Part shown: one piece after another, positions 8,258 to 30,682 of the stretch | How positions within the stretch are numbered: position 1 is the stretch's first letter | Layout of the letters: the number at the start of each line of letters is the position of its first letter | Assembly (NCBI RefSeq): GCF_000016745.1 | Contig: NC_009483.1 | Span: forward strand, 630,001 to 662,000 | DNA length: 32,000 nucleotides | Reading direction: 5' to 3' | From: Geotalea uraniireducens Rf4 | Lineage (GTDB): Bacteria; Desulfobacterota; Desulfuromonadia; Geobacterales; Geobacteraceae | Position numbers and translations under genes: made by a program | The notes under the pieces: model-generated | What the model was told of the DNA's origin: nothing | Databases searched by the model: none | Seen by the model: only the letters and a program-made list of their open reading frames with translations

Positions 8258-8261
8258 GCAG

Positions 8262-9383
8262 TTAATCCTCCTTTGCCCCTTCAGATTCATCTCCGTGCCG
8301 GGTAGCACTGATAATGCCATGGGCGGCGAAAGCCGCTGCCGTAGCCACCGCGATGCCTATGCCTATCTTGTCGGCTGTCGCCTCGATGCCGAAGCCCGGA
8401 ACATTAGGCAGCCGCTTGTAAAGCGGGGTCATGGTATCCCAGAACTGCGGTTCCGAACAGCCGGCACAGCCGTGCCCGGCGCCTACCGGCCAGGAGGTCT
8501 TGTCGTTGTATTTCTGGGTCGGACAGTTGTGATAGGTTTCAGGCCCCTTGCACCCCATTTTGTAGAGGCAGTGCCCTTTCGCATGGGCTGTGCTTCCCCA
8601 CTGCTCAACATACTGACCTGCATCGAAGTGGGGACGGCGCTCGCAATTGTCATGGATCCGCTTGCCGTAGGCAAAGAGGGGTCTGCCAAAGCTGTCGGTG
8701 GCGGGGAGTTTGCCGAAGACCAGGAAATGGACGATGGTCGCCGTCAGGTTGTCGGCATTGAGCGGGCAGCCGGGCAGATTGATCACCGTGGCTCCCGGAA
8801 CAGCTTGCTTTACGCCGACAGCGCCGGTCGGGTTGGGGTTGGCGGCGGGCAGCCCGCCGAAGGATGCGCAGGTGCCGACCGCAACGGTAGCCAGGGCGCT
8901 GCCGCATACCTCCCGCGCCGTGGCAAGGGCTGTCTTGCCTGCGACACAGCAGTAGACGCCGTCATCCTTCATGGGAATGGAACCTTCCACAACGACGATG
9001 TATTTCCCTTTCTGCTCCTTCACCACCTTGGCAAGGATTTCTTCCGCCTGGTGCCCTGCGGCAGCCATGATGGTTTCATGGTAATCCACGGAGAGGACGT
9101 CGAGGACTATCTCCGCGACGGTCGGATTCGAGGCCCGCAGGAGCGCCTCGGTGTCGCCTGCGCAGTCCTGGAATTCAAGCCAGACCAGCGTCGGCCGCTT
9201 GACCTCGTCCAGCGCCTGGGCAATTTTGGGCGCAAAGGTCGCCGGCAATGCCAGTGCTGCCGACATGGCCGAGCAAAACTTCATGAAGTCACGCCGGGAT
9301 ACACCCTTCTTTTCCAGTAGTCGTGAAACAGTATAATCGAGTTCTAACACTCCATTGTCTACGCTTTCCCGTGAATCTCCCAT
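8262..9383 (-). CDS. hyaA: [NiFe] hydrogenase small subunit, Tat-exported, with C-terminal membrane anchor
   Basis: Twin-arginine signal SRRDFMKFCSAMSAALALPATFAPKIAQA. Fe-S cluster Cys motifs (FQDCAGD, GTCASFGG, GCPLN, HDNCERRPHF, CLYKMGCKGP, CAGCSEPQFWD). Hydrophobic C-terminal helix IGIGIAVATAAAFAAHGII. Confidence 0.95.
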   Translation of the reverse strand: MGDSRESVDNGVLELDYTVSRLLEKKGVSRRDFMKFCSAMSAALALPATFAPKIAQALDEVKRPTLVWLEFQDCAGDTEALLRASNPTVAEIVLDVLSVDYHETIMAAAGHQAEEILAKVVKEQKGKYIVVVEGSIPMKDDGVYCCVAGKTALATAREVCGSALATVAVGTCASFGGLPAANPNPTGAVGVKQAVPGATVINLPGCPLNADNLTATIVHFLVFGKLPATDSFGRPLFAYGKRIHDNCERRPHFDAGQYVEQWGSTAHAKGHCLYKMGCKGPETYHNCPTQKYNDKTSWPVGAGHGCAGCSEPQFWDTMTPLYKRLPNVPGFGIEATADKIGIGIAVATAAAFAAHGIISATRHGDESEGAKED

Positions 9384-9399
9384 CGCAAACCCTCCTTAC

Positions 9400-9620
9400 A
9401 CTGTAATGCAAGTTTATTGCGCATCTACGCTGTTTAAGCTATAAATCGGTGAGATGTAAGACTTATTGACAACCTGCCGCAAACAATAACATTGTTTTAC
9501 TGTAATTAATTTAATTGTCAAGAAATAACAGATTGTTTGATGAATTAATTTGCGCCAACAAAAATGGGTTCCATACATTCACGGAATCCCTTTTGGTTCA
9601 TCGATCAGCTCACTTAGATA
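9400..9620 (-). promoter_or_regulatory. AT-rich upstream control region of the hydrogenase operon, with palindromic half-sites
   Basis: A sharp AT-rich stretch upstream of hyaA. Perfect palindrome AAACAAT-AAC-ATTGTTT at 9481-9497. Further ATTGTTT, AATTGTCA and AATTAATTT repeats at 9500-9550. No confident -35/-10 or -24/-12 assignment. Confidence 0.3.
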
Positions 9621-9678
9621 GATTAGACTGGATTCGGCAGTTGGAGGGGGGCATTAGCGGGATACGGGGTGCGCGCGG

Positions 9679-10479
9679 CTAAAGCGGAGGAGTGCCGATG
9701 ATCAGCACCTTGGGGCCGTAGTTTATGTAGCGGAATTTTCCCGTCTGCCGTTTTGTGGCGACGGCCCATTCGTAGAGCCTTTTGGCGTCCTTGAGGAGCG
9801 GCTTACGCGGTTCGTGGTAATACTCTCGCTGCATCTCCTCGTCGTATAGGCCGATGCAGCCGTGCGAAGCCGGGTGTCCGGGGACGTCGCGGCCGTGGAG
9901 CCAGTAGGAGATCCAGGCATCCACCTTTTTCTCCACATAGAACCTGAGTCCGTAATGCATCGGATAGGGACGATCGGTCCCTTCGACCGGGTAGATGCTC
10001 GACTCGTGGCGGCGGTCGGCCGCATCGATCCTGAACGAGCCGTTGGGGACCCGGTGCCCGTCGATGCCGACCGCCACCGGGGTGGAAAAGACCAGGGTGC
10101 CGTATTCATAGGCACCTAGGAACATCTCGGACTGATCGACCAGGATGAATTTCGGCTCCTGTGCCGCGTCCGGGTAAGTTGCCGGCATCGGGGTGAACCC
10201 CTTGATCTCCTCCAGCCGCTTCGGGACCTTGATCCACATGCCTGCGAGGAAGTGGCGCCGGTCCATCCTGTTGAAGCGGAGCCCGTCCCGCCAATACTTG
10301 CCGAAGAGCCGGTACGGCGAGTCCTTCCGCTTCAGCTGCACGCATTCCCATTCGACGCGGCTGTCGCTGGGGTAGTGGACATCGCAGAGCGAATTGATTG
10401 CGTCCGCTGCGGCTACGGAGCGGAAGTTTAAGAGGAGGGAGGCGAGGAGGGCAATGCCGATGAGGATGAACGGTTTCAT
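9679..10479 (-). CDS. L,D-transpeptidase (YkuD) domain protein, secreted
   Basis: Signal peptide MKPFILIGIALLASLLLNFRSVAA. Catalytic motif HG....HPASHGCIGL typical of YkuD L,D-transpeptidases. Confidence 0.8.
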   Translation of the reverse strand: MKPFILIGIALLASLLLNFRSVAAADAINSLCDVHYPSDSRVEWECVQLKRKDSPYRLFGKYWRDGLRFNRMDRRHFLAGMWIKVPKRLEEIKGFTPMPATYPDAAQEPKFILVDQSEMFLGAYEYGTLVFSTPVAVGIDGHRVPNGSFRIDAADRRHESSIYPVEGTDRPYPMHYGLRFYVEKKVDAWISYWLHGRDVPGHPASHGCIGLYDEEMQREYYHEPRKPLLKDAKRLYEWAVATKRQTGKFRYINYGPKVLIIGTPPL

Positions 10480-10744: not shown

Positions 10745-13700
10745 ATGAGCTTCAATGAAAACGCCAGAGTGAAAATACCGGCAATATTACATTTATGCCG
10801 TTTGGGCTATGACTACCTGTCGCTATCGGCAGCAATCCGTGATGAAAGCACCAATATTTTCACCGACCTGTTTTCTGAAAGCATCAGGCGCATCAATCCT
10901 GATCTTGAGGAAAGCGCAATAAAGCGGTTATTGGAAGATATTTCACTGATTCTGGATAATGAGGACCTGGGCGAAGCATTTTACCGGATGCTCACCGCTC
11001 GTTCTGGCGTGAAACTGATCGACTTCAATGACTTCAGCAACAACAGTTTTCACGTAGTAACTGAATTGACCTGCAAAAACGGCGATGACGAATTCCGACC
11101 GGATATCACGCTTTTGATCAACGGTATGCCCCTCGCTTTTATCGAAGTCAAAATACCGAACAATCAGGAAGGGATTCTCAAAGAACGGGACCGGATGCTT
11201 GTTCGTTTCCGGAACAAGAAGTTCCGGAAGTTCATCAATATTTCCCAGCTGCTGGTCTTTTCCAATAACATGGAATACGATCAGGACTCAGTTGAACCTA
11301 TCCAGGGAGCGTTTTACTCGTCTACCTCCACCGGTGACGTTCACTTCAACTGTTTCCGCGAAGAAGAACAGTTCGACCTGTCACAACTGCTGCAGCCGGA
11401 AGACAACGCCCGGGAAGACTTAGTCCTGAAGGACAACAATCTTAACGTCATCAAGCATTCACCGGAGTTCATCACCAACAAGGAACCCACCACCCCCACA
11501 AACCGGCTGCTCACCTCGCTGTTTAGCTGTAATCGTTTGGCAATGCTGCTTCAGTACGGTTTCGCCTACGTGCAGGAATCGAAGGGTGTTGAGAAGCATA
11601 TCATGCGCTATCCGCAACTGTTCGCCACCAAGGCGATCCAGCATAAGCTCGATAACGGCATCAAAAAGGGGATCATCTGGCATACCCAAGGAAGCGGCAA
11701 GACGGCGCTTTCCTATTACAACATCCACTACCTGACGGACTATTTTCAGCAGAAGGGAGTCATTCCCAAGTTCTATTTCATTGTTGACCGCATCGACCTG
11801 ATGGAACAGGCCAAACGGGAGTTTTCCATCAGGGGGCTGGTCGTCCATACCGTAAATTCCAGAGAAGAGCTGCTGAAAAGCTTTCGGGTGCGCAAGGCGA
11901 TTCACAACCTGTCCGGCAAGCGGGAAGTTACGGTCGTCAATATCCAGAAGTTCCAGGACGATACCCATCTGCTCCAGATGCAGGACTATGACATCGCTAT
12001 CCAGCGGGTCTATTTCCTCGACGAAGTGCACCGGAGCTACAACCCGAAAGGGAGTTTTCTGGCCAACCTTATCAGTTCAGATCGGGAGGCCATTCTCATT
12101 GGCCTGACCGGCACCCCTCTTATTATGGCAGACCGGAAGTCCAGGGATCTGTTCGGCGACTATATCCATAAATACTACTACAATGCTTCCATCGCCGACG
12201 GTTATACCCTGCGGCTGATCAGGGAAGGGATTGAGACCAACTACAAAATCCAGTTGGAGCAAGCGCTGAAGGAAGTGGAAATTCTCAAAGGTGATGCGGA
12301 TAAGCGGGTGATTTTTGCCCACGAAAAATTCGTTGAACCGATGCTGGATTATATCGTCGAGGATTTCATCAACAGCAGAATCCGCCTGGGGGATCACACC
12401 ATCTGCGGCATGGTGGTCTGCGATAGTGCCGAGCAGGCTCGCAGGTTGTTCGACATCTTTATCGCCAAGTACAATCCTGATCAGAAAACGGTCGAAGATG
12501 TTTCAACGGAGTATCTCAAGGTCGCCGAACCGGTTGTCGCCTATGGGGAGTATCTGAACAAGCGGAAAAGCAGACTGACCGCCTCGCTGATCCTGCATGA
12601 CGTTGGCTCAAAGGATGACCGCAAAGACGAAGTAGAGGATTTCAAGGAAGGCAAGATCGATTTTCTTTTTGTCTATGGTATGCTCCTGACCGGCTTTGAC
12701 GCCAAGCGCCTGAAAAAGCTTTATCTTGGTCGGATTATCAAGGATCACAACCTGCTGCAAACCCTTACTCGGGTCAATCGACCGTATAAAAAGTTCCGCT
12801 ATGGTTTCGTGGTTGATTTTGCCGACATCCGCAAGGAGTTTGACGCCACCAACAAGGCATATTTCGAGGAATTACAGGAGGAGCTTGGTGATGAAATCGG
12901 GACCTACTCCAACCTGTTCAAGACCAAGGAAGAGATTGACGACGAGATCAGCGACATCAAGGAAAAGCTGTTCCACTACGACCTGACAAACGCTGAAATT
13001 TTTTCACAGCAGATCAGCCGGATAGAAGACCGGAAAACAATGCTGGAGATCAAGAAGGCTCTGGAGAATGCCCGCAACCTCTACAACATCATCCGACTCC
13101 TCGGCCATTTCGAACTGCTGGAACATACCGACTTCAATAAACTGAACCAGCTTTATCGAGAGGCGGTTCGGCACCTGGAGCTGCTGAGTCTGAAGGAATC
13201 GGTACAGAACAATGTCGATGCCACTAACCTGCTGAATGTGGCCCTGGAAAACGTGCTCTTTATGTTCCGCAAGGTTTCGGAAGAAGAACTGATTATTGCA
13301 GACAAGCTGAAGGACATGCTGCGCAAGACCAGGGAAGCGCTGGGGAATAACTTCGACCGGAAAGACCCGGAATTTGTTTCCCTTTACGAAGAACTAAAGC
13401 GGCTTTTTGGCAAGAAGAATCTGGACGAAATAACCCAGGACGAGATGAAGCGAAATATCGGCTCGTTGCAGCAAATTTTTGATAAAGTGACCGAGCTGAA
13501 CCGCAGGAACAACCTGCTAAAAGCGAAGTACGAGAACGACGCCAAATATGCCCGCATTCACAAACGGTTGGTGGAGAAGGGAACTGTCTCAAAACGGGAA
13601 AGCGCCATCCATGCCACCTTGATGGGCATAAAAAAACAGGCTGACGATCAGGTGTTGTTGAATGCCAAGATGCTTGAGAACGAGGCCTATTTCGACCAAA

Positions 13701-13831
13701 AACTTATGCAAATGGTAATCGGCGGCTTCGGCAAGGCAAAGATCAACCTCGATCCGGAGAGTGCCCATTTCATCAACTCCTGCGTGACGCGGGAGTATCT
13801 TAACGAATACCGGGGAGTAGCTGCGTGGTAG
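10745..13831 (+). CDS. hsdR: type I restriction endonuclease subunit R
   Basis: 1028 aa. N-terminal nuclease-type region (PDITLLINGMPLAFIEVK). SF2 helicase motif I HTQGSGKTA and motif II DEVHRS. Later motifs LTGTP and VVCDS, plus a long helical C-terminus. First gene of the hsd operon. Confidence 0.95.
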   Translation: MSFNENARVKIPAILHLCRLGYDYLSLSAAIRDESTNIFTDLFSESIRRINPDLEESAIKRLLEDISLILDNEDLGEAFYRMLTARSGVKLIDFNDFSNNSFHVVTELTCKNGDDEFRPDITLLINGMPLAFIEVKIPNNQEGILKERDRMLVRFRNKKFRKFINISQLLVFSNNMEYDQDSVEPIQGAFYSSTSTGDVHFNCFREEEQFDLSQLLQPEDNAREDLVLKDNNLNVIKHSPEFITNKEPTTPTNRLLTSLFSCNRLAMLLQYGFAYVQESKGVEKHIMRYPQLFATKAIQHKLDNGIKKGIIWHTQGSGKTALSYYNIHYLTDYFQQKGVIPKFYFIVDRIDLMEQAKREFSIRGLVVHTVNSREELLKSFRVRKAIHNLSGKREVTVVNIQKFQDDTHLLQMQDYDIAIQRVYFLDEVHRSYNPKGSFLANLISSDREAILIGLTGTPLIMADRKSRDLFGDYIHKYYYNASIADGYTLRLIREGIETNYKIQLEQALKEVEILKGDADKRVIFAHEKFVEPMLDYIVEDFINSRIRLGDHTICGMVVCDSAEQARRLFDIFIAKYNPDQKTVEDVSTEYLKVAEPVVAYGEYLNKRKSRLTASLILHDVGSKDDRKDEVEDFKEGKIDFLFVYGMLLTGFDAKRLKKLYLGRIIKDHNLLQTLTRVNRPYKKFRYGFVVDFADIRKEFDATNKAYFEELQEELGDEIGTYSNLFKTKEEIDDEISDIKEKLFHYDLTNAEIFSQQISRIEDRKTMLEIKKALENARNLYNIIRLLGHFELLEHTDFNKLNQLYREAVRHLELLSLKESVQNNVDATNLLNVALENVLFMFRKVSEEELIIADKLKDMLRKTREALGNNFDRKDPEFVSLYEELKRLFGKKNLDEITQDEMKRNIGSLQQIFDKVTELNRRNNLLKAKYENDAKYARIHKRLVEKGTVSKRESAIHATLMGIKKQADDQVLLNAKMLENEAYFDQKLMQMVIGGFGKAKINLDPESAHFINSCVTREYLNEYRGVAAW

Positions 13832-15450
13832 CACGGGATTTTACTGCAAAAACGAAAGAACTGATCGATAACCTCAAAGGGGTCTGTGCCTCATACGGCT
13901 TGGGAAACGACGGTAATGAGTTCAAAATCATTACCCAGGTCTTTCTCTACAAATTCATGAATGACAAGTTCGGCTACGAGGTGAAGGAGATGGAGCCGAA
14001 GCTGAAAAAAGCCGCCATATGGGAACAGGAGATCGCCAAGTATTCGGACAAGGATTACGAGATGCTGCTCTTGAAGATGAGCCCGGACAGCGCCCGGCTG
14101 AAGCGGGAGCATTTTCTTCCCCGGCTGCACAACCGCCAGAACGAGGGGGAGTTTGCCAAACTCTTCGACGACACCCTGCGGGACATCGCCATTTTCAACA
14201 ATGACATTTTCTCGGTCAAGACCGGCACCGGCGCCAAGGTGACCCTGTTCGACGAGCTATCCAACTTCATCACCGATAGTTCTCGACGCGACGACTTCTG
14301 CCGCGCCATCATCACTCAATTAATACCTTTCAGCTTCGAGAAAATCTTCCACCAGAAGTTAGACTTCTTCTCCACCATCTTCGAGTACCTGATCAAGGAC
14401 TACAACAAGGACGGCGGCGGCAAATATGCCGAATACTACACCCCCCATGCCGTGTCAAAAATCATGGCTGCCATCCTGGTGGACAAACCGGTGAAAAATG
14501 TCACCTGTTACGACCCCTCGGCCGGGTCCGGCACCCTGCTCATGAATCTGGCACATGCCATCGGCGAGGACCGCTGCACCATCTACTCCCAGGACATCTC
14601 GCAAAAATCCACCAGCATGCTGCGACTCAACCTGATCCTGAACAACCTGGTCCACTCCATCCAGAACATCATCCAGGGCAACACCATGCTGACGCCGTAT
14701 CACAAGAGCGGCGACAAGCTGATGACCTTTGATTACGTCGTCTCCAATCCGCCGTTCAAGCTGGATTTCAGCGACTTCCGCAACGACCTGGAGACCAAGC
14801 AGAACCGAGACCGCTTCTTTGCCGGCATCCCCAAGATTCCCAACAAGGATAAGGACAAGATGGCCATCTATCTGCTCTTTATCCAGCACATCATGTTTTC
14901 CCTCTCTGCCAAGGGGAAAGCCGCTATCGTCGTCCCCACCGGTTTCATTACCGCCCAGAGCGGCATCGAAAAGAAGATCCGGGAAAAGCTGGTTGTGGCA
15001 AAGATGCTGCGGGGAGTGGTTTCCATGCCGAGCAATATCTTTGCCACCACCGGCACCAATGTGTCGGTGCTCTTTCTGGATAAGACCAATACCAAGGGAG
15101 ACATCGTCTTGATGGACGCCTCCAAGCTTGGGACTACGGTCAAGGAGGGGAAGAACCAGAAGACCGTTCTGTCAGTGGCAGAAGAAGAGCTGATTATCAA
15201 GACGTTCAACGACCACAAGGCGGTTGAGGATTTCACCGTGGTGGTTTCCTATGAGCAGATTAAGGAGAAGAACTATTCGCTGAGTGCCGGGCAGTACTTT
15301 GATGTGAAGATCGAATACACCGATATTACCCCGAAGGAATTTACCGCAAAGATGGCGGGGTACTGGAAGAATCTTGATCAACTGTTCGGCGAGTCACAAA
15401 AGCTGGAAAAGGAGATAAAGAAGCAGTTGGTGGGGTTGAAGTATGAGTAA
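13825..15450 (+). CDS. hsdM: type I R-M N6-adenine DNA methyltransferase subunit M
   Basis: GTG start overlapping the hsdR stop by 7 nt. HsdM N-terminal helix (IITQVFLYKFMNDKF). AdoMet motif I YDPSAGSGTLL and catalytic motif IV VVSNPPF. Confidence 0.95.
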   Translation: MVARDFTAKTKELIDNLKGVCASYGLGNDGNEFKIITQVFLYKFMNDKFGYEVKEMEPKLKKAAIWEQEIAKYSDKDYEMLLLKMSPDSARLKREHFLPRLHNRQNEGEFAKLFDDTLRDIAIFNNDIFSVKTGTGAKVTLFDELSNFITDSSRRDDFCRAIITQLIPFSFEKIFHQKLDFFSTIFEYLIKDYNKDGGGKYAEYYTPHAVSKIMAAILVDKPVKNVTCYDPSAGSGTLLMNLAHAIGEDRCTIYSQDISQKSTSMLRLNLILNNLVHSIQNIIQGNTMLTPYHKSGDKLMTFDYVVSNPPFKLDFSDFRNDLETKQNRDRFFAGIPKIPNKDKDKMAIYLLFIQHIMFSLSAKGKAAIVVPTGFITAQSGIEKKIREKLVVAKMLRGVVSMPSNIFATTGTNVSVLFLDKTNTKGDIVLMDASKLGTTVKEGKNQKTVLSVAEEELIIKTFNDHKAVEDFTVVVSYEQIKEKNYSLSAGQYFDVKIEYTDITPKEFTAKMAGYWKNLDQLFGESQKLEKEIKKQLVGLKYE

Positions 15451-16600
15451 GCCTGTCAATAAAAGATTGGGGGATATAGTCAACTTTAAGAGAGGTTATG
15501 ATTTACCATCCTATAAGCGCAAAGAAGGCCCATATCCCATCGTAAGCTCTTCCGGAATATCTGGCTATCATGCTGAATATAAAGCCAAAGGAGAAGGATT
15601 AATCACAGGCCGATACGGTACACTTGGCGAAATGTACTATGTGAATGGCAAATACTGGCCCCATAATACGGCACTATATGTTACTGACTTCAAAGGGAAT
15701 TATCCGAAGTATGTCTACTTTCTTTTAAAATGCCTCGGTAGTTTAAAAACGTCAGATAAGAGCACTGTTCCAGGTGTTAACAGAAATGATTTGCATGAAT
15801 TACTGGTTCCTTATATCAAGCCTGAACTTCAGAAACCTATTGCAGATTTTCTTTTCTTATTAGAATCAAAAATTGACCTCAACAACCGCATCAACTCCGA
15901 GTTGGAAGCTATGGCAAAAACGCTGTACGACTACTGGTTTGTGCAGTTTGATTTTCCCGACAAAAACGGCAAACCCTACAAATCCTGCAGTGGGAAGATC
16001 GTCTGGAACAAGGAGTTGAAGCGGGAGATCCCTGAGGGCTGGAAGGTTGGTTCATTACTCGACATTGCAGAGTACATCAATGGCTTACCGTGTCAGAAAT
16101 ATAGACCGATAGGAACTGATTTTTTATACGTCATTAAAATCAGAGAAATGCGCGACGGATTCACCAGCGAATCGGAACTGGTTAGACCTGATATCCCGCA
16201 AAAAGCAATCATTGAAAATGGCGATGTTCTTTTTTCATGGTCAGCTTCTTTGGAAGTACAAATCTGGACTGGCGGAAAAGGTGCATTGAATCAGCATATC
16301 TTCAAAGTAACATCGAAAAAGTATCCAAAGTCATTTTATTACTATCAACTAGTGAACTACCTCCAACATTTTAAAATGATGGCAGACAATCGCAGAACAA
16401 CAATGGGGCACATTACGCAGGACCACCTGAAACAAAGCAGAATTGTTTTACCTCCAATAGAATTAACTGAGAAACTCGAATGCAAACTTGGCCCCATCCG
16501 TACTGCAATCACAAGCAACCAATTAGCAAATAATACTCTTTCCTCTCTCCGGGACTGGCTCCTCCCCATGCTCATGAACGGCCAGGTGAAGGTGGGTTGA
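15443..16600 (+). CDS. hsdS: type I R-M specificity subunit S (two target-recognition domains)
   Basis: The ATG overlaps the hsdM stop (ATGAGTAA). It has the central conserved region LEAMAKTLYDYWFVQFDFPD and the C-terminal conserved region LSSLRDWLLPMLMNGQVKV, separated by two variable TRDs. Confidence 0.9.
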   Translation: MSKPVNKRLGDIVNFKRGYDLPSYKRKEGPYPIVSSSGISGYHAEYKAKGEGLITGRYGTLGEMYYVNGKYWPHNTALYVTDFKGNYPKYVYFLLKCLGSLKTSDKSTVPGVNRNDLHELLVPYIKPELQKPIADFLFLLESKIDLNNRINSELEAMAKTLYDYWFVQFDFPDKNGKPYKSCSGKIVWNKELKREIPEGWKVGSLLDIAEYINGLPCQKYRPIGTDFLYVIKIREMRDGFTSESELVRPDIPQKAIIENGDVLFSWSASLEVQIWTGGKGALNQHIFKVTSKKYPKSFYYYQLVNYLQHFKMMADNRRTTMGHITQDHLKQSRIVLPPIELTEKLECKLGPIRTAITSNQLANNTLSSLRDWLLPMLMNGQVKVG

Positions 16601-16647
16601 GTCAATCTGACAACGCCCTAAAAGGTACTTTTCCTATAGGAGTTACG

Positions 16648-18261
16648 ATGAAGAACGCGATTCTGAAACGCCTGAAAAGAACCGATCATCTGCCGATGCT
16701 GTTTATCGGTTCCGGCATGTCAATCCGCTATCTCGGCCTCGAAAACTGGAAAGGATTGCTGCGCAAGTTTGCCCGGCTGGCGACTGACAACGACTATGCC
16801 TATGAAATGTATGAGCAGCAGGCGAAAGGGCTGGAGTGCAAGGAAGGGCTGCTGCCGAAGGTGGCGGAACTTATCGAGCGGGATTTCAACCTGGGTTGGT
16901 TCAAGGACGATCAGTTTAGGGAGAGCCGGGAACAGTCGACGGATGAGATAAACCGTTCCGTCTCGCCGTTCAAGATCGAAATCGCCCGATACATGCGCGA
17001 CAAGAGCCGGCAGCATAACGCCGAGTATGCTGCTGAAATTGAACTGTTCAAGCAGCTTGAAATGCGCAGCATCGGCGGGGTGCTGACGACAAACTACGAC
17101 AGTTTCATCGAGGACCTCTTCACCAGCTACACGAAATACATCGGCCAGGAAGAACTGCTCTTTTCCACACTGCACGGCATTTCCGAAATCTACAAGATTC
17201 ATGGCTGCTGTACGAAGCCGGAATCCATCGTCATTAATGAAGCTGACTATGCCGACTTTTCGGAAAAGAACGCCTACCTGGCGGCAAAGATTCTCACCAT
17301 ATTCCTTGAACATCCCATCGTGTTCATCGGTTACTCCATCAATGACACCAACATCGAAAATATCCTGAAATCAATCATCAAATGTCTTTCCCCCGAAAAT
17401 CTCGACAAGATCAGAGAGCGGCTCATGTTTGTTGAGCGGGCAAGAGAAGGGGTGCCGGAGGAGGTTTCCACCTACAGCAAGTCGTTTGAAGGTGGCAAGT
17501 CCATTGATATGACGCGTATCCGCCTGAAGAACTACGAGGTCTTGTATCAGGCCTTACTGGAAAACCAGGCAAAATATAATGCCCCGATGCTGCGACGCTT
17601 GAAGCAGGACATTTACGAGCTGGTGTTGACGAACAAACCGACTGGTAAGATCAGGACCGTCAACCTGGAAGATGAAAAGCTGGAAGATGTTGAGGTGGTG
17701 ATAGGGGTCGGAATCCCTTCAGATTTCGGTCAGAAGGGGTATGCGGGGATTACGGCAGAAGATATTTACGCCGATGTCGTTTTCGATGACAGAGAGTATG
17801 AAGTCGACAGGATTGTCACAACAACGTTGCCGTCACTGCTACCAACCAACAGCATTCTCCCGATGCACAAATATATATCCCAATACACTGGAGAACTCCC
17901 GATTAATCCGGATAAAATCATCAAAGATTTTGATGGATTCATCGCCTCGTCAATCAAGAAGAACCGGGAGCGGAGCGGTTACAGAAACGAAACAATAAGT
18001 TCGTTACGGCGTAAATGGTCATTGGAGAGGTGCTTGTATGCTCTTCAGTTTCTAAAGGAAGAAAACATCGATCCTGCGGAACTCCTTGACTTGATAAAGG
18101 GTGTAATTGAAGCCAATCCGTCGGCTCTTTCAACCGCTGAAAGGGATAAACAGAATCTCAAATCCGATATAAAAAGAGCCATCCGGATTTACGATTGGCT
18201 CAGATACCACAAAAACAAAGGAGCCCTAGCTGCAGCGGCCACGAACTGTCCACCTTGCTAG
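16648..18261 (+). CDS. SIR2-family (SIR2_2-like) putative NAD+-consuming effector with uncharacterised C-terminal domain
   Basis: ATG at 16648 with an AGGAG RBS 5 nt upstream, preferred over the TTG at 16597. Motifs in order: LFIGSGMS (Gly-rich NAD loop), LTTNYD (catalytic Asn), IYKIHGC (catalytic His), VFIGYSINDTNI. This resembles the ThsA/DSR-type SIR2 layout. The C-terminal ~250 aa has no motif I recognise. Same strand as hsdS, 47 nt downstream, with no terminator between. Confidence 0.8.
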   Translation: MKNAILKRLKRTDHLPMLFIGSGMSIRYLGLENWKGLLRKFARLATDNDYAYEMYEQQAKGLECKEGLLPKVAELIERDFNLGWFKDDQFRESREQSTDEINRSVSPFKIEIARYMRDKSRQHNAEYAAEIELFKQLEMRSIGGVLTTNYDSFIEDLFTSYTKYIGQEELLFSTLHGISEIYKIHGCCTKPESIVINEADYADFSEKNAYLAAKILTIFLEHPIVFIGYSINDTNIENILKSIIKCLSPENLDKIRERLMFVERAREGVPEEVSTYSKSFEGGKSIDMTRIRLKNYEVLYQALLENQAKYNAPMLRRLKQDIYELVLTNKPTGKIRTVNLEDEKLEDVEVVIGVGIPSDFGQKGYAGITAEDIYADVVFDDREYEVDRIVTTTLPSLLPTNSILPMHKYISQYTGELPINPDKIIKDFDGFIASSIKKNRERSGYRNETISSLRRKWSLERCLYALQFLKEENIDPAELLDLIKGVIEANPSALSTAERDKQNLKSDIKRAIRIYDWLRYHKNKGALAAAATNCPPC

Positions 18262-18467: not shown

Positions 18468-21281
18468 CTAGCTTATCTTCACCGTCTTGTACAAAAAGTT
18501 CTTGAACTTGAAGAAACGTTTCCTTTCTTCCTCTTCATTGTTGATATCGCCGCCGACGGCTTTCAGGTGGCGGGCGATCTGCGGCATCCCCTTTCCCACC
18601 GCCATCCTCGTTTTCTCTATGACCAGCCTGACCACGTCCCGGGAAATAAGGTTCTGTGAATAGGGTTCATAGACCGCTTGCCAAAAGTCCTTGTTGTTCC
18701 CGATCTGCGTCATGATCTCGTCCGCGACCTCTTCGGTCAGCTTTGCCGCGGCCTGGGTCGGCGCTTCTCGCATCCCGTCCCTGATGGCCCGGCGGATGTC
18801 CTCGCCGCCGATGAGCTTTCCCTTGCGGAAAAAGAGCGCCCGGAGGAGTAAGCTGCGCAATTCCCGGATGTTTCCCTTGTACGTGTGCTTGACGAGCACC
18901 TGTTTGGCCTCTTCCGTCAGGAGCGGCGCGTCGTCCCGCGGTTCGTCCTTCCCCCGGTAGGTGCGGTAGAGCTTGCCGAGGAAGTGGGTCGCCAGGTCGG
19001 GGATGTCCTCACGCCGTTCATTGAGGGACGGCACCGTTACCGACAGCTCCGACAGCCTGTGGTAGAGGTCTTCACGGAAATTCCCCTTGCCGATCTCTTC
19101 CAGGAGGTTCTTGTTGGTGGCGGCTACCAGCAGCACCCTGCTGAAGCGTTCCTGGTTGTCTCCGAGACGGACGAACCCGCCGTTGTCCAGGAAGCGGAGC
19201 AGCTGCACCTGGGTCTTCAGGTCGGCGTCGCCGATTTCGTCGAGAAAGACGATCCCTCCCCCCGCTTCTTCGAGGATTCCCTTGCGGTCGTTGTAGGCGC
19301 CGGTGAATGCTCCTTTCTTGTGGCCGAACAGCTCGGAATAGGTGAGCTCGCCGCTGTAAGCGGCAATGTTGGTCTTTTTCACGTGGAGTTCGCCGTTCGG
19401 GTTGATCTCCTGCCGGTACAGTTCATTGAGCTTGTTGTAGAGGTTGTTGAAGAAGAATTCCTTTCCTGCTCCGGTCTGGCCAAGGACGAGGATGGAGGGG
19501 AGGCCGATGGTCGCTTCCTGGAGGACGTTCTTGCTCCAGAGAGCAATGCGGTTGAAGAGCGGCTGGGAGACGGTGTTGATGAAATCGACGATTTCCTGGG
19601 CCTTGCGGCTGTTGCCGATGATGTTCCCCAGCCGGTAGGAGGAAATCTGCGGGTCCTTGTAGGCCACGTCGCTCTGGAGGCGGGTGACCTCGTTCTGCAG
19701 TCGCTCGATGCGCTGGATGTCCGCGATGTGCCGGGAGGTGAGTCGGTCGATGATCTGCAGGATCCGTTTGTGCTCTTCGGTGAAGTAGGCGGGTTTCAGC
19801 GAGTTGAGGCAGATGACGGCGGTGACTTCGTCGCCGCTGATGACCGGCACCGCTATTTCGCTCTTGATCAGCTCGCTCATGGAGCGGTGGAATCCCCCTC
19901 CACGTTGCTCTTCCTCCACATTGGCGATGATCTTCGGCTGCTTGGACCAGGCGACGAAACCGGTGAGGCTCCGCTCCTCGGGGGGGAGCTCCTGCCCGCC
20001 GATCTTGAATGGGGGGATATACTTCTTCAGCCACTCCTTGTTCTTGGCGCCGACGATGGTTCCCTCCTCGTCCTCGACCACAAGCCACTTCTCGCCTTCC
20101 CGCTCCTCGATGATAGCGATGCTGCCGGTGTCCGCGCCGATCAGCTCGGTGGCCTTGGACAACACCTTGGTCAGGAAGGGTTGCAGCTCTTCGTTCCGCT
20201 CCTGGAGCAGGTCGGTGATCTCGGCGAGCACCTTGATTTCCAGGTGTTCGCCGCCGATTTCGCGGATGACGCTTTCCACCATTTCCGCATGGGTCTGCAA
20301 AAGCCCCATTTCAAACTCGGAAAAGCGGTACAGGTCGCGGGTGAAATAGTTCACCAGGCAGATCACCCGCCGGCTTTCGGGCTCGAAGCGGGGGACCAGG
20401 TAAACGGAGCGGAGCGCCATCTTTTCGGTAAGCGCCCGCTTTTGCAGGCTGTGCTGGGTCAGGTCGGCGATGAAGAGCGGACGCAACAACCTTTCATCGG
20501 ATATGACGCCGTTGTCGTCCACATATTTCGAGATCAGCGACTTCCCCTTTTGCAGGTCGATGGAGCCCTGCTCGTCGTAGAGTGCCTTCAGCTGGGGTTC
20601 TTCCGAATAACTTGCCAGGATTTCCAGGGCGCCTTCGCCGCCTCTGCCTGAAATCGGCACCAGCACCGAGGCCAGCGACAACCGGTCGATGAGCCGGACC
20701 GCCGATTTCATCATGAAGGCGGCGGTTTCGCGTTTTTTGTATTCCTCTACGCTGCGGGCAAGGAGGAGTTGCTGGTGGTACTTCCTCGCGTAATCGAGAC
20801 GTTCTCCGATCGATGCGACGAAGTCGCCGAGAAGTCCTTTGTCGCGGCCGTTCACCACTTCGCCCGCCATTTCCCGGTCGATGCAGATCACGCCGAAGGA
20901 TTTTCCCAGGCTGGTGATGGGGAGGAGGTAGGATGCCGCGATTTTGAAGCTTTCGGCGAAACCTTTGTCGAGACTCAGGTTCTGTTTGGCGGCATTGCGG
21001 AACTCCGCCGGATACTGGGAGACGAAAACGCTGGAGACAATTGCATCGCGGGAGATGATGGGGAAGGTTGCTTCACGGATTTCGCCGGCAAAGGGGCCTG
21101 ACGCGTAAGCGCAGGAGAGCGCCCCCTTGGTCAGATCTTCCAGATAGATCCTGATCCGTTCCTGTTCGGTCACCAGCCTTAATCCTTCGGCAACCGTATG
21201 GAGCATCTCGTCCAGATTTTCCTTGCCGAAACCGGCAATTTTTTCGCTGAGTTTAAGTAGTTGGAGTTTTAACGATTCCAT
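18468..21281 (-). CDS. sigma54-dependent enhancer-binding protein with three N-terminal GAF-like domains
   Basis: 937 aa. AAA+ sigma54-interaction domain with Walker A GQTGAGKE, the diagnostic ELFGHKKGAFTGA loop, Walker B VFLDEIGD, then ATNKNL...FREDLYHRLS. About 540 aa upstream fold-wise resemble three GAF units. The C-terminus has a weak HTH-like segment (GMPQIARHLKAV). Confidence 0.9.
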   Translation of the reverse strand: MESLKLQLLKLSEKIAGFGKENLDEMLHTVAEGLRLVTEQERIRIYLEDLTKGALSCAYASGPFAGEIREATFPIISRDAIVSSVFVSQYPAEFRNAAKQNLSLDKGFAESFKIAASYLLPITSLGKSFGVICIDREMAGEVVNGRDKGLLGDFVASIGERLDYARKYHQQLLLARSVEEYKKRETAAFMMKSAVRLIDRLSLASVLVPISGRGGEGALEILASYSEEPQLKALYDEQGSIDLQKGKSLISKYVDDNGVISDERLLRPLFIADLTQHSLQKRALTEKMALRSVYLVPRFEPESRRVICLVNYFTRDLYRFSEFEMGLLQTHAEMVESVIREIGGEHLEIKVLAEITDLLQERNEELQPFLTKVLSKATELIGADTGSIAIIEEREGEKWLVVEDEEGTIVGAKNKEWLKKYIPPFKIGGQELPPEERSLTGFVAWSKQPKIIANVEEEQRGGGFHRSMSELIKSEIAVPVISGDEVTAVICLNSLKPAYFTEEHKRILQIIDRLTSRHIADIQRIERLQNEVTRLQSDVAYKDPQISSYRLGNIIGNSRKAQEIVDFINTVSQPLFNRIALWSKNVLQEATIGLPSILVLGQTGAGKEFFFNNLYNKLNELYRQEINPNGELHVKKTNIAAYSGELTYSELFGHKKGAFTGAYNDRKGILEEAGGGIVFLDEIGDADLKTQVQLLRFLDNGGFVRLGDNQERFSRVLLVAATNKNLLEEIGKGNFREDLYHRLSELSVTVPSLNERREDIPDLATHFLGKLYRTYRGKDEPRDDAPLLTEEAKQVLVKHTYKGNIRELRSLLLRALFFRKGKLIGGEDIRRAIRDGMREAPTQAAAKLTEEVADEIMTQIGNNKDFWQAVYEPYSQNLISRDVVRLVIEKTRMAVGKGMPQIARHLKAVGGDINNEEEERKRFFKFKNFLYKTVKIS

Positions 21282-21448: not shown

Positions 21449-23302
21449 TCAGTTAAGCCCTTTCCTGATCTGGTAGAGCTCTTCCATGTTGAGGTCGTTC
21501 AACTCGTAGTATTCCCGTTCGAGCTCTTCTACGTAGAAGCGGTCCAGGCCGGAGTTCTCCAGAAAGTCTTCGCGGAGGGACGTGTCTTTTTCGACGATGA
21601 TGATGGGGAGCAGGTTGTGCAGGTAGATCGCTTCTTTCTTGATGGCAAGGATGGTTTCGCGAAAAAGAGTCTCGGGGATGTCGCCGGTCAGGAGTCTTTT
21701 GTGGCGGAGTTCTTCGGTGACTTCGCGTTTTAAGGCGTCCTGGTCGGCCCTGGTGGCGTATTTGGAATAGAAGTTCCGTATCCGTTCCCGGACGTGTTCC
21801 AGGAGGGTGATGAAAATCCGTTCTTCTTCGTCGATTTTCAGGAGCTGCTCTAAAAGCGCTGATATGGTGAGGCGATTTTCTTCAATCTGATTAAGCCCCT
21901 TGATGAGGGCTGAGACCTTTTTCCGACCGTAGGTTCCCAGGTACTTGTTTTCGAATATGCCGCTGAGAAACAGCTTTTTGAAGAGGTCCGGAGCCAGGTT
22001 GTCGAATTCGCTTTTGTTGCCGAGAAGACTTCTGATCATCTCCTCGGATATCTTGACGTTTTCCATGAAGGCCAACTGGTTGATTATGGAGGAGGTCGAG
22101 TCGTAGCGGTCAAAGTAGGTTATTATGTAGGAAAACCCTTCCAGGAGTGAAATGTCTGCGCCGTCGCGGATCTTTTCGTCGCAGAGTTTGCTCGCATCGA
22201 GCAGTATCTCTTCGAATGTGTGGTCGCGGTTTTCCGCCGCTTGTTTCTTGGCGTAGAGCAGCTTCAGCATGTCCTCGCGGTCAATGGCGTTCTCTATCTG
22301 CCGTTCGCTGAGAAACATCCCTTCCAGAATCTGCCGGGTTTCAGAAATATAATTGTTTTCTTCAAGATCAACCAATTTCTTGTCCTTTTTCAGCATTTCG
22401 TCAAGGGTGTAAAAGAGCGCGCCCGGTATCTTGTTGCGGACCGACAGGGTTTTCAGCCTGGTCAGCCTGGCATTTTCCAGCTTGTTGATTTCGCCTTTGC
22501 GGTTGCAGGCAATGAGGATGTTTTTGTACTCATCGACGATTCTCTTGTTGTCGGGGTGCTTGTACATGATGTCGATGCGGATGCGCTCCTGCTGGTAGCG
22601 GTCGATGGAGTGCTCTTCCGCCAGCACGGAGAGCCTGGTGAAATCCTCATCGGCAATTTTTTTGTTCTTGAAGTAGAGGGATTTGAAAAAGTCGCTGTAT
22701 TTCTGGTGCTTCTTGTTGATGAGCTTAAAAAGGAATAGTTGGGCCTTGGGATCGTGCAGAAGGTCGAAGAGCTCGGCAATGATGCGGTTGTCATCCTCTT
22801 CCCACACCGCAATGGAACGTTTGAGAGCCTTGCCGAGGCGCCTTACGATCTCTTCCTGCTGCTTGTCGAGGTCTCCGCTGATTTTTTTTGAACTGACACA
22901 GAAAAAGTAATTACAGACCGCGTTCCCGTCAAAAAATATCTTTTCGTAGCTCTGGGTGCCGTCGGTTCGGTTGCTGAATTTGAGGGTTCCATTCTGGTTG
23001 CTGTAGTGGGTGCCGTACATCACCAGGCGGTTAATGGCGTCTCCCTTGGCAAGGTCGGCAATCGGCTGATCGACGCCGAACATGTATTCGCAAAATGAGC
23101 CGCCGTTGCCATGGTGGGTGATGGATTCCTTGCCGATGATGAATTCATTGCCTGGACTGAAGATACGGAGTTCGCGTCCGTCTTCCTGGTTGGTGTTGAA
23201 AAAATAGCGGTTATGCGCTTCGGTCCCGGCGACGATGGCAAAATACTCGATATCTTTGTCTACGTAGCCGTGGAGGCGAATGTCGTTATGCATCAAATCC
23301 AT
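21449..23302 (-). CDS. 617-aa conserved-looking hypothetical protein (beta-rich N-domain + long helical region)
   Basis: A long uninterrupted ORF with coding-like composition, on the same strand as and between the MBL hydrolase and the EBP genes. No catalytic or binding motif recognised. I have a vague, unverifiable memory of a Geobacter-restricted uncharacterised family of this size. Confidence 0.7.
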   Translation of the reverse strand: MDLMHNDIRLHGYVDKDIEYFAIVAGTEAHNRYFFNTNQEDGRELRIFSPGNEFIIGKESITHHGNGGSFCEYMFGVDQPIADLAKGDAINRLVMYGTHYSNQNGTLKFSNRTDGTQSYEKIFFDGNAVCNYFFCVSSKKISGDLDKQQEEIVRRLGKALKRSIAVWEEDDNRIIAELFDLLHDPKAQLFLFKLINKKHQKYSDFFKSLYFKNKKIADEDFTRLSVLAEEHSIDRYQQERIRIDIMYKHPDNKRIVDEYKNILIACNRKGEINKLENARLTRLKTLSVRNKIPGALFYTLDEMLKKDKKLVDLEENNYISETRQILEGMFLSERQIENAIDREDMLKLLYAKKQAAENRDHTFEEILLDASKLCDEKIRDGADISLLEGFSYIITYFDRYDSTSSIINQLAFMENVKISEEMIRSLLGNKSEFDNLAPDLFKKLFLSGIFENKYLGTYGRKKVSALIKGLNQIEENRLTISALLEQLLKIDEEERIFITLLEHVRERIRNFYSKYATRADQDALKREVTEELRHKRLLTGDIPETLFRETILAIKKEAIYLHNLLPIIIVEKDTSLREDFLENSGLDRFYVEELEREYYELNDLNMEELYQIRKGLN

Positions 23303-25859: not shown

Positions 25860-26687
25860 ATGAGCAAAGCAAAAAAGAGTACCATCGAGGTTCAGGGATC
25901 GTCCATTAGCATCCTTTCGCAACAAGGAGAGGACTATATTTCGCTCACCGACATGGTGCGGAACTTTGATGGCGGAGGCGCGCTGATTGAGCAGTGGCTC
26001 AAGAACAAGGACACAGTCCTGTTCCTCGGTGTCTGGGAACGTATCAATAACCCCGATTTTAATTCCCTCGAATTCGAGGGAATTAAAAATGAGGCTGGCC
26101 GGAACAGCTTTTTCCTGTCTGCCAAAAAATGGATCGAACTTACTGGAGCCAAAGGGCTGATCGCGAGAGCAGGCCGCTACGGTGGTACTTACGCTCACCG
26201 CGACATTGCTTTTGAGTTCGGTTCGTGGCTAAGTCCGGAGTTCAAACTCTACCTCATAAAGGAATTTCAGCGTCTCAAGGAGGATGAAAATCGCCGCCTG
26301 TCGCTCGCCTGGAATTTGAATCGCACCCTTTCCAAGCTTAACTATCGTATCCACACCGATGCGATCAAGGCGCATCTGGTTCCAGCTGCAGTAACCGCCT
26401 CGCAGGCCACCATCATCTACGCCCACGAAGCGGACGTGCTTAATGTTGCTCTCTTCGGCCAGACAGCCAAACAGTGGCGGGATACCAACCCCGAGATGGA
26501 AGGCAACATGCGCGAGTACGCCACTATTGAGCAATTGCTGGTGCTGGCCAATATCGAGGGAATGAATGCCGAACTCATTCACATGGGACTGTCGCAAGGG
26601 GAACGCCTCAAGCGTCTCAACGCAATAGCCATTCGCCAGATGCAGGTGCTTACTTCTGCGGCTGCGATTAAACAACTTAAGGAATAA
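25860..26687 (+). CDS. KilA-N domain-containing protein
   Basis: ISLTDMVRNFDGG..LIEQWLKNKDT..FLGVWE...GTYAHRDIAFEFGSWLSPEFKLYLIKEF is the KilA-N DNA-binding domain pattern. The C-terminal half is helical. Confidence 0.85.
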   Translation: MSKAKKSTIEVQGSSISILSQQGEDYISLTDMVRNFDGGGALIEQWLKNKDTVLFLGVWERINNPDFNSLEFEGIKNEAGRNSFFLSAKKWIELTGAKGLIARAGRYGGTYAHRDIAFEFGSWLSPEFKLYLIKEFQRLKEDENRRLSLAWNLNRTLSKLNYRIHTDAIKAHLVPAAVTASQATIIYAHEADVLNVALFGQTAKQWRDTNPEMEGNMREYATIEQLLVLANIEGMNAELIHMGLSQGERLKRLNAIAIRQMQVLTSAAAIKQLKE

Positions 26688-26848: not shown

Positions 26849-26940
26849 GTGTCAGGTCTCCACTTATGACATTGTCACAGGTGGAGACCTGGCACCCATG
26901 TGGCCTCTGACACCCATGTGGTGACACCCATGTGGCCTCT
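26849..26940. repeat. 15-nt-arm inverted repeat followed by three tandem (T)GACACCCATGTGG(CCTCT) units
   Basis: GTGTCAGGTCTCCAC at 26849-26863 versus GTGGAGACCTGGCAC at 26881-26895 (1 mismatch). The CACCCATGTGG core occurs at 26893, 26911 and 26924. The array ends at the TTG start of the ORF6N gene. Confidence 0.75.
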
Positions 26941-27470
26941 TGCTACCTGTAGAAACAATCCAGGATAAAATTCTCCTGCTGCGCGGGCAGAAAGTCATGC
27001 TGGATGAGGATTTGGCGGAGCTGTACGGGGTGGAGACCAAGGTTTTGAATCAGGCGGTTAAACGCCACTCCAAGAGATTTCCCCCCGATTTCATGTTTCA
27101 GTTGAGCGAAGAGGAATATACCGAGTCGACAGCTTTAAGGTCACAATTTGTGACCTTAAAGAAAGGGCGAGGCTCACATCGGAAGTATCTGCCGTATGCC
27201 TTTACCGAGCAAGGAATTGCCATGCTCTCCGGCGTTCTCAACAGCGACCGGGCCATCGAAGTGAACATCCTTATCATGCGGGCGTTCGTGAAGCTCCGGG
27301 AGATGATCGCGTCCCACAAGGATTTAGCGAAAAAGCTGGATGAACTGGAAATGAAGTACGACGCTCAATTCGCCATAGTTTTTGATGCCATGCGGCAGAT
27401 CATGACGCCACCGGAACCGAAGCGGAAGAAGATAGGGTTTGTAAAGGAAGAGAAAAATAAAGCTGATTAG
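26940..27470 (+). CDS. ORF6N domain-containing protein (KilA-N-related DNA-binding)
   Basis: [49 protein letters not shown] is the ORF6N signature. The only in-frame start is the TTG at 26940, so the start is uncertain. Confidence 0.8.
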
Positions 27471-30471: not shown

Positions 30472-30682
30472 AGCCTCCGGAAAGTTTTTCCGAAGATGGT
30501 AGATGATGTGACAGGAAGATGAAAAAAAGTTAGTCCGGAAAAGATTGGACACCTATTCCGGAAATCCCGAAAAAGTGTCCAGTTAAAACCGGAATCGGTG
30601 TCCATTCAAAACCGGAATGACTGTCCAACCTTTTCCGGAATTGGTGTCCAGTTTATATCGGAATCGGTGTCCAGTTTACTCC

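Follow-up and report, generated by a model that had tools for sequence, protein, structure and literature searches.

Introduction

Does a sirtuin-type gene at the end of a type I restriction-modification (R-M) operon encode an effector that is held in check by the R-M complex, or a defence enzyme that travels with the operon and works by itself? This question is raised by the SIR2-family gene at positions 16648-18261 of a 32,000-nt stretch of the Geotalea uraniireducens Rf4 genome (contig NC_009483.1, positions 630,001 to 662,000), referred to here in its full length as the window, in which the gene stands fourth behind hsdR, hsdM and hsdS. A sequence-only reading of the locus had proposed a second-line effector depleting NAD+ (an NADase), which guards the R-M complex or is triggered through it in the manner of PrrC, and which fits no described system. 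In this study, we explored the locus by profile searches, structure prediction and a comparison of genomic contexts across the family. Judged from its sequence, the gene is a real gene and a member of an already catalogued candidate family, PDC-S25, rather than a new kind of system, and it is predicted to encode an NAD+ hydrolase. With moderate confidence, we consider the protein an autonomous, DSR-like single-protein abortive-infection NADase that is carried in an R-M operon.

The fourth cistron encodes a predicted NAD+ hydrolase

The gene and the functional elements of its N-terminal half are located as follows:

16648-18261, + strand: gene of the SIR2-family protein, 537 aa, PDC-S25 member (PADLOC, homologues, public gene calls)
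16648-17532, + strand: SIR2 domain of NADase type at the N-terminus, aa 1-295, containing a helical insert (about aa 34-135) (Pfam, PDB profile, AlphaFold2 (AF2) and Foldseek)
16699-16722, + strand: Gly-rich NAD-binding loop LFIGSGMS, aa 18-25 (homologue alignment, KomC)
17092-17100, + strand: Asn149-Tyr-Asp151 of the TTNYD motif, containing the predicted catalytic Asn (homologue alignment)
17200-17202, + strand: codon of His185, the predicted catalytic His of IYKIHGC (homologue alignment, KomC)

The four motifs that had been noticed from the letters alone, LFIGSGMS (aa 18-25), LTTNYD (aa 146-151), IYKIHGC (aa 181-187) and FIGYSINDTNI (aa 226-236), are present in this order, and the profile check proposed for them returned SIR2_2 (PF13289) at aa 145-264 with 84.9 bits (cut-off 24.5; E 7.2e-24). 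SIR2_2 is the sole Pfam match in the whole 537-aa protein, and the classical sirtuin profile PF02146 gave no match to it. Across 78 full-length homologues, which stem from many phyla and share 38-98% mutual identity, Asn149, Asp151 and His185 are invariant (78/78), and G21 and G23 are kept in all 75 homologues aligned at these positions. The Pfam match and the alignments thus bear out the expectation of an SIR2_2 domain of the active type, in which the Gly loop as well as the catalytic Asn and His are preserved.

Searched against the PDB, a family profile built from 61 homologues matched solely defence NADases, namely KomC (3e-14), DSR2 (3e-12), SeThsA (1e-11), EcThsA and BcThsA. In the printed alignments the Gly loop pairs with LFVGAGVS of KomC, and TTNYD is identical in KomC, SeThsA and DSR2. 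His185 pairs with KomC His146, the residue replaced in PDB entry 9xvc ('KomC(H146N)'), and also with the His in the DSR2 motif KVHGD, taken here to be His171 from the 'DSR2 H171A' entries, the alignment being printed without residue numbers. The AF2 model of the full protein reached a mean per-residue confidence (pLDDT) of 81, with values mostly of 87-97 across aa 1-160, and in Foldseek it was assigned with probability 1.0 to the SIR2 domains of DSR2, KomC, ThsA and Avs5, DSR2 being the top match, with TM-scores of 0.55-0.66 when normalised to the isolated SIR2 chains. From the alignment with the catalytic residues of the proven NADases KomC, DSR2 and ThsA and from the model, we predict that the protein is an NAD+ hydrolase of the SIR2_2 defence type.

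Membership in the candidate family PDC-S25

In PADLOC, the protein matches model PDLC04968 (PDC-S25) with an E-value of 1.1e-163, residues 2-521 of 537 aligning with profile positions 11-515 of 517, and a second PDC-S25 model, PDLC04967, with 9e-59. Because the protein is a full-length PDC-S25 member, the earlier statement that no described system matches it does not hold. The family is large, comprising at least 1248 homologous protein clusters, and the collection of species-representative genomes contains at least 579 stretches that code for a relative.

The PDC series goes back to the 'guilt-by-embedding' approach of Payne, Hughes, Fineran and Jackson (2024), who released 145 "phage defence candidates" in PADLOC, that is, genes embedded in type I R-M, BREX and DISARM loci that remained after known defence, mobility and housekeeping genes had been filtered out, and who already pointed to PrrC as the model example of a back-up system embedded in this way (bioRxiv 10.1101/2024.01.29.577857). 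The idea of R-M embedding has therefore already been applied systematically to build the very catalogue that contains PDC-S25. In the accessible part of the supplements of Payne et al., neither the entry of PDC-S25 itself nor the kind of its founding locus was located. A later preprint leaves the PDC systems out as unvalidated, and in the literature searched PDC-S25 is named only as a listing in an E. coli O157:H7 strain. Literature searches for a SIR2 gene functionally tied to type I R-M returned nothing specific.

The window gene shows no family-level difference from PDC-S25. As the PDC definition asks, it is a single-gene unit adjoining type I R-M, with no recurring partner other than hsd genes, although it is appended 3' of hsdS in an R-M-S arrangement and not nested among the hsd genes.

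A C-terminal domain confined to the family

The second half of the protein is formed by a domain for which no relative outside the family was obtained in our searches:

17533-18258, + strand: all-alpha domain at the C-terminus, aa ~296-537, with a presumed sensing or regulatory role (AF2 model)
17617-17733, + strand: conserved segment aa 324-362 (ELVLTNKPTGK...VEVVIGVG...FGQ), AF2 pLDDT below 50 (AF2, alignment)

Modelled alone, aa 290-537 gave a pLDDT of 76 and a predicted TM-score of 0.64. Pfam returned no match to the domain (none past aa 264), a sequence search of the PDB returned none either, and a known fold was rejected from Foldseek, where the best E-values were 1.5 in the PDB and 0.38 in BFVD. 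The earlier impression that the C-terminal ~250 aa are not of SLOG, TIR or HerA type therefore stands, and within Pfam, PDB and Foldseek it extends to any known fold.

A C-terminal profile searched against 1.84 billion representative proteins gave 851 matches, of which the best 150 are all ~520-aa proteins carrying the domain at about 285-535, or fragments, and the two-domain layout is constant across the 851 representative clusters. A sensor module shuffled between different architectures was accordingly rejected as a candidate, as the domain occurs solely in the SIR2-protein architecture among the best 150 of 851 matches. Because the profile search places it at the same position in ~520-aa proteins, we regard the domain, on this sequence evidence, as a module specific to the PDC-S25-type family. 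Its near-invariant residues Y323, N329, P331, G355 and G364 lie in or directly next to the low-confidence segment 324-362.

At the extreme C-terminus (aa 522-537, 18211-18258), the window protein and its nearest relatives P0005 and P0012 carry a tail, KNKGALAAAATNCPPC, which ends in CPPC, is absent from the rest of the family and is modelled with pLDDT below 50.

The hsd cassette in the window

Upstream of the SIR2 gene, the following features were assigned:

10745-13831, + strand: hsdR, restriction/translocase subunit of type I R-M, 1028 aa (Pfam, NCBIfam, PDB relatives)
13825-15450, + strand: hsdM, methyltransferase subunit, 541 aa, GTG start (Pfam, PADLOC, PDB relatives)
15443-16600, + strand: hsdS, specificity subunit with two target-recognition domains, 385 aa (Pfam, PADLOC)
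16601-16647, + strand: spacer between hsdS and the SIR2 gene, 47 nt (direct sequence reading, consensus scan)

HsdR matches HSDR_N (1.6e-26), SWI2_SNF2 (6.5e-39), ResIII and T1R_D3-like in Pfam as well as the NCBIfam hsdR model TIGR00348 (1.5e-77), and its nearest solved relative is EcoR124I HsdR (E 6e-23). HsdM matches Pfam N6_Mtase (2e-64) and, over its full length, PADLOC MTase_I PDLC03033 (2e-272), the nearest solved relative being the EcoR124II M protein with 3e-37, compared to 6e-7 for EcoKI M. HsdS is covered by Pfam Methylase_S in two stretches (3e-26) and by PADLOC Specificity_I (6e-114). Going by sequence matches among solved structures, the Hsd proteins of the window are nearest to the type IC EcoR124 enzymes.

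The compact layout that had been read from the sequence could be confirmed by the open reading frame (ORF) calls, with a 7-nt overlap of hsdR and hsdM and an 8-nt overlap of hsdM and hsdS, all on the + strand, followed 47 nt past the hsdS stop and on the same strand by the 537-aa ORF, which starts at ATG 16648. Its own ribosome-binding site AGGAG was likewise found, at 16638-16642 and 5 nt ahead of the ATG, and a consensus scan of 16601-16647 showed no terminator-like or promoter-like site, in agreement with the reported lack of a hairpin or T-run in the gap. An alternative upstream start exists at TTG 16597. However, every SIR2 homologue starts at MK..., matching ATG 16648, and independent gene calls for the identical protein in public assemblies give 537 aa within the same four-gene context. 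Because of both observations, we assign ATG 16648, and not TTG 16597, as the true start.

With a G+C content of 0.485, the four-gene cassette lies below both flanks (about 0.58), which marks it as acquired in one block. No tRNA gene and no promoter or terminator was found marking the cassette, and exact-protein look-ups of the flanking YkuD gene, made in search of an empty site, gave only contigs that already contain the cassette. The scan for partner genes covered the hsd operon together with the long ORFs flanking it, that is, part of the ORFs of the window; among these, no ThsB/TIR, HerA or Argonaute partner was present, in agreement with the earlier claim.

Linkage to hsd genes across the family

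To place the operon position in a wider frame, we compared 80 loci from species-representative genomes, in which ORFs were called, searched with hidden Markov models built from the window Hsd proteins, and neighbours within four genes were clustered. The sole recurring neighbour families are HsdR (21 loci), HsdS (18) and HsdM (17). In all linked loci the hsd genes have the same orientation as the SIR2 gene, with gaps of -4 to 250 nt. Overall, about a quarter to a third of the sampled loci are linked, and the linkage depends strongly on the clade:

Close relatives (at least 46% identity to the window protein): hsd-linked in 16 of 21 informative loci
Distant relatives (about 40% identity): hsd-linked in 5 of 57 loci clearly, and in up to 10 of 57 with weak matches

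The difference is significant in Fisher's exact test (p 2e-8 to 3e-6), and the type I R-M link, for which an enrichment check on homologues had been suggested, is thus recurrent.

Several gene orders are found among the linked loci. The order R-M-S-SIR2 of the window recurs, M-S-R-SIR2 is also present, and in nine loci (our labels L004, L010, L016, L018, L019, L020, L022, L032 and L080) the order is M-S-SIR2-R, which places the SIR2 gene in the slot that PrrC occupies in EcoprrI. A second collection, with Pfam-annotated contexts, contains the arrangements hsdS-SIR2 and hsdR-M-RhuM-x-S-SIR2 as well as two stand-alone cases. In a Desulfuromonas sp. (L089/L090, 2555-8572), a 76%-identical SIR2 gene directly follows a type III R-M system consisting of an N6_N4_Mtase Mod and a ResIII helicase Res.

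Members without hsd genes are equally part of the family. The 148 neighbours of the 59 loci without clear hsd genes contain no common partner family and consist of serine recombinases, integrases, HTH proteins and some further R-M or defence genes. Even some close relatives (L009, L015 and L051) have no hsd neighbours, and hsd-less close relatives adjoin a Prim-Pol element or a prophage end. A stand-alone member occurs in P. sordellii, and full-length members are located beside a site-specific integrase on the B. anthracis plasmid pXO2 (L086, 5992-7617) and in the temperate B. cereus phage phBC6A51 (Bacillus phage, 52675-54240). The latter two share 35-38% identity at 96-98% coverage and are annotated as 'SIR2 family protein' or 'hypothetical protein'.

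Where SIR2 and hsd genes do occur together, their relationships do not run in parallel. SIR2 orthologues of 70-87% identity are found in operons whose HsdM and HsdR are just 26-35% identical, for example L013 and L014 with 87% for SIR2 and 28% for HsdM. For pairs with a SIR2 identity of at least 68%, HsdM identity is at most 35% in 20 of 37 cases, the overall Spearman correlation of SIR2 and HsdM identity is 0.27, and the SIR2 gene is carried by at least seven unrelated HsdM lineages. This mismatch points to repeated moves of the gene between unrelated type I operons and, as far as sequence identities can tell, argues weakly against a complex co-adapted with one R-M enzyme. The same mismatch shows that, across these operons, the gene has become linked to R-M loci anew on many occasions.

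Other genes are embedded in the same loci. In L020 (Clostridium), a 705-aa Argonaute (7747-9861; PADLOC pAgo, i.e. prokaryotic Argonaute, 4e-266) lies directly upstream of the SIR2 homologue in the order hsdM-hsdS-pAgo-SIR2-hsdR; it is of long-A type, with KmAgo, CpAgo and CbAgo as best PDB matches. A 705-aa gene of the same neighbour cluster holds the same position in L016 (Clostridium), the typing having covered the L020 gene only. A 328-aa TIR/bSEFIR protein (L019, 8997-9980; PADLOC 6e-52) ends 17 nt before the SIR2 homologue, and in L094 the homologue is preceded by a 79-aa ORF with a TIR domain (6068-6307); these are possible Thoeris-like pairings in a minority of loci. Extra genes between hsdM and hsdS or between hsdS and hsdR (L004, L018, L091/L092, L007, L043 and L013) encode PDC-S02 (DUF1016/YhcG nuclease), PDC-S01 (AAA_14/DUF4143), RhuM, Schlafen AlbA_2, a GHKL ATPase and Abi_C. 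With so many unrelated genes embedded in these loci, the hsd operon serves defence cargo as a general landing pad, in agreement with the description by Payne et al.

Comparison with known systems

DSR1 and DSR2, together with AbiH, are single-protein sirtuin-type defences. Like DSR1 and DSR2, the window protein is one polypeptide in which an N-terminal SIR2 NADase domain precedes a C-terminal region made of helices; the catalytic motifs TTNYD and HG align, and DSR2 is the top Foldseek match. However, the window protein is only half as long (537 aa compared to about 1000-1200 aa), its score with NCBIfam Dsr2 is 20.5 bits where the cut-off is 1400, the PADLOC Dsr1 and Dsr2 models match the SIR2 part only, and the C-terminal domain has no fold match to the sensor region of DSR2, a protein that senses the phage tail tube.

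ThsA and KomC provide the best sequence matches among solved structures, with aligned Gly loop, Asn and His. In ThsA, the C-terminus is formed by a SLOG sensor and the TIR protein ThsB is required for function, whereas no SLOG was found here, the PADLOC ThsA match (2e-20) stops at profile position 228 of 478, and no TIR gene is present among the window ORFs scanned. KomC differs in having 264 aa and was solved in complex with KomB ('KomBC' PDB entries); Kongming also includes KomA, and no Kom partner was found at the locus.

AbiH, a lactococcal protein of sirtuin-like fold, and bAgaS, the SIR2_2 protein of the long-B pAgo system BPAS, resemble the window protein as small sirtuin-type abortive-infection effectors. 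AbiH acts as a single gene, while GbbAgaS is toxic alone via NAD+ depletion and is silenced by its partner GbAgo. Both GbbAgaS (348 aa) and AbiH are shorter than the 537-aa window protein and therefore cannot carry a C-terminal domain of 240 aa. Membership in AbiH was rejected, with no Pfam or PADLOC AbiH match. Membership in bAgaS/BPAS was rejected as well, with a BLASTP E-value of 1.4 to GbbAgaS (sequence from the supplement of PMC10620215) and with the L020 pAgo being of long-A and not of long-B type. For ThsA, DSR1/DSR2, Lamassu LmuA-SIR2 and SPARSA SIR2-APAZ, membership was rejected in view of PADLOC and NCBIfam matches confined to the SIR2 core, and for SIR2-HerA, SPARSA and BPAS in view of the lack of HerA, short pAgo-APAZ and long-B pAgo among the window ORFs scanned.

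PrrC, the precedent invoked by the sequence-only reading, is an accessory suicide-type effector in or beside a type I hsd operon, in its case the type IC locus EcoprrI. The likeness extends to the hsdS-hsdR slot, which is filled by homologues of the window gene in the nine loci listed above, and to the host R-M system, which is EcoR124-like among solved structures. The proteins are not homologous, though, since PrrC consists of an ABC ATPase and an anticodon nuclease, for which no Pfam or PADLOC match was obtained, while a SIR2 fold is found here. Moreover, according to Payne et al. (bioRxiv 10.1101/2024.01.29.577857), PrrC occurs almost solely within hsd loci, while of the 80 loci sampled here about a quarter to a third are linked, most of them in the close clade.

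Proposed roles: autonomous effector or guard of restriction

We propose a model in which the SIR2 domain would hydrolyse NAD+, while the family-specific C-terminal domain probably keeps the enzyme off until a phage cue is sensed. The switch could be conformational or oligomeric, as in DSR2, ThsA or KomC. In the window, the SIR2 gene closes a horizontally acquired hsdR-hsdM-hsdS cassette as its last cistron, and the four genes are probably transcribed together, so that restriction would form the first line and NAD+ depletion, leading to abortive infection, the second line of an anti-phage function. The hsd linkage would then serve mainly co-transfer and co-expression, and the SIR2 enzyme would work without Hsd proteins. 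Several points weigh against this model. The C-terminal domain has no recognisable ligand- or protein-binding fold in the PDB and BFVD searches, and the literature searched contains no mechanism or validation for PDC-S25 members. SIR2 domains also include deacylases and ADP-ribosyltransferases, according to a review. Finally, the gene persists beside hsd genes in 16 of 21 informative close loci and across at least seven unrelated HsdM lineages, often in the slot of PrrC, and this persistence across unrelated lineages suggests more than hitch-hiking.

The last point leads directly to the strongest competing explanation, in which the SIR2 protein is a PrrC-like guard, either held inactive by the Hsd complex or sensing anti-restriction proteins (DNA mimics of Ocr/ArdA type or Stp-like peptides), and NAD+ depletion is unleashed once a phage disables restriction. 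We consider this unlikely. It is favoured by the enrichment of hsd linkage in the close clade, by the consistently shared orientation and short gaps, by the occupation of the hsdM-hsdS-X-hsdR slot in nine loci and by the independent capture by at least seven HsdM lineages. The Hsd proteins of the window are also nearest, among solved structures, to type IC EcoR124, the class that hosts PrrC, and GbbAgaS with GbAgo gives a precedent for a toxic SIR2_2 effector silenced by a partner. Most of the family, however, lacks hsd neighbours, including three close relatives and the phage and plasmid copies, and one close relative sits behind a type III R-M system instead. Neither sequence nor fold similarity to PrrC is found, and the same loci host PDC-S01, PDC-S02, pAgo, TIR, Schlafen, Abi_C and RhuM genes. 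SIR2 and Hsd do not co-vary, although a sensor of DNA mimics need not co-evolve with Hsd. Taken together, we lean against latency of the protein within the R-M complex.

A broader form of this idea, to which we assign a similarly low, if anything slightly lower, probability, is that the close PDC-S25 clade, with the window gene in it, has become specialised in guarding restriction as such by depleting NAD+. In this reading, the C-terminal domain would recognise something shared by anti-restriction attacks, for instance Ocr/ArdA-like DNA mimics or a stalled or disassembled Hsd complex. This specialisation would explain the repeated recruitment into unrelated type I operons, into at least one type III locus and into the PrrC slot.

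A role outside defence, be it as a deacylase or ADP-ribosyltransferase regulating R-M or host proteins or as a selfish toxin killing cells that lose the cassette, is improbable in our view. The general range of SIR2 activities given in the review and the foreign, low-G+C nature of the cassette would be compatible with it, and no antitoxin-like partner is evident, which leaves regulation unexplained. The matches, however, are to SIR2_2 defence NADases (KomC, DSR2, ThsA and Avs5) and not to classical sirtuins (PF02146), the family occurs on prophages, plasmids and in R-M loci, as is typical of defence genes, and it is already catalogued as a defence candidate. Least probable of all is a Thoeris ThsA-like effector whose C-terminal domain binds a small-molecule or protein signal from a sensor, for example a TIR protein, that is encoded at a distance or only variably linked, the R-M link being incidental: the TIR genes upstream of the homologue in L019 and L094, the PADLOC ThsA matches to the SIR2 part and the Gly-rich, poorly modelled conserved segment (VVIGVG...G-KGY) speak for it, but TIR neighbours occur in just 2 of about 90 loci and are missing among the window ORFs scanned, the ThsA match ends before the middle of the profile (228/478), and no SLOG, Macro or other known signal-binding fold was detected.

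Significance

If active, the autonomous enzyme favoured here would be a compact 537-aa single-protein NADase defence with a sensor domain that lacks a known fold, and would join DSR, Thoeris and Kongming among the immune systems that deplete NAD+. Both the family and its embedding in R-M loci have been in a catalogue since 2024, which limits the value of the find as a discovery. What is added here is the clade dependence of the hsd linkage, the capture by multiple lineages, the stand-alone mobile members and the confinement of the C-terminal domain to the family. With its capture by multiple Hsd lineages, its use of the PrrC slot and its orphan C-terminal domain, the family constitutes a well-defined experimental target. 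The repeated capture by unrelated R-M operons in particular offers a natural test between co-travelling and a PrrC-like back-up of restriction. If a guard of restriction in general were true, it would be the first sirtuin-type R-M guard and the second, mechanistically independent example of the PrrC principle. As the family is widespread, with at least 579 stretches and with members on pXO2 and in a B. cereus phage, a single validated member would also provide annotation for many genes.

Surroundings of the cassette

Downstream of the SIR2 gene and convergent on it, a GAF/sigma-54 activator gene occupies 18468-21281. Between this gene and an MBL-fold gene, a 617-aa ORF (21449-23302, - strand) gave no Pfam or PADLOC match. 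About 8 kb downstream of the cassette, a KilA-N protein (25860-26687, + strand) matches PDC-S22 over its full length (E 1.5e-130), followed by a 176-aa protein (26940-27470, + strand) matching PDC-S05 (E 5e-58). Both genes adjoin an IS21 istA/istB pair at 28178-30552, and the stretch to the right of the cassette looks variable and mobile.

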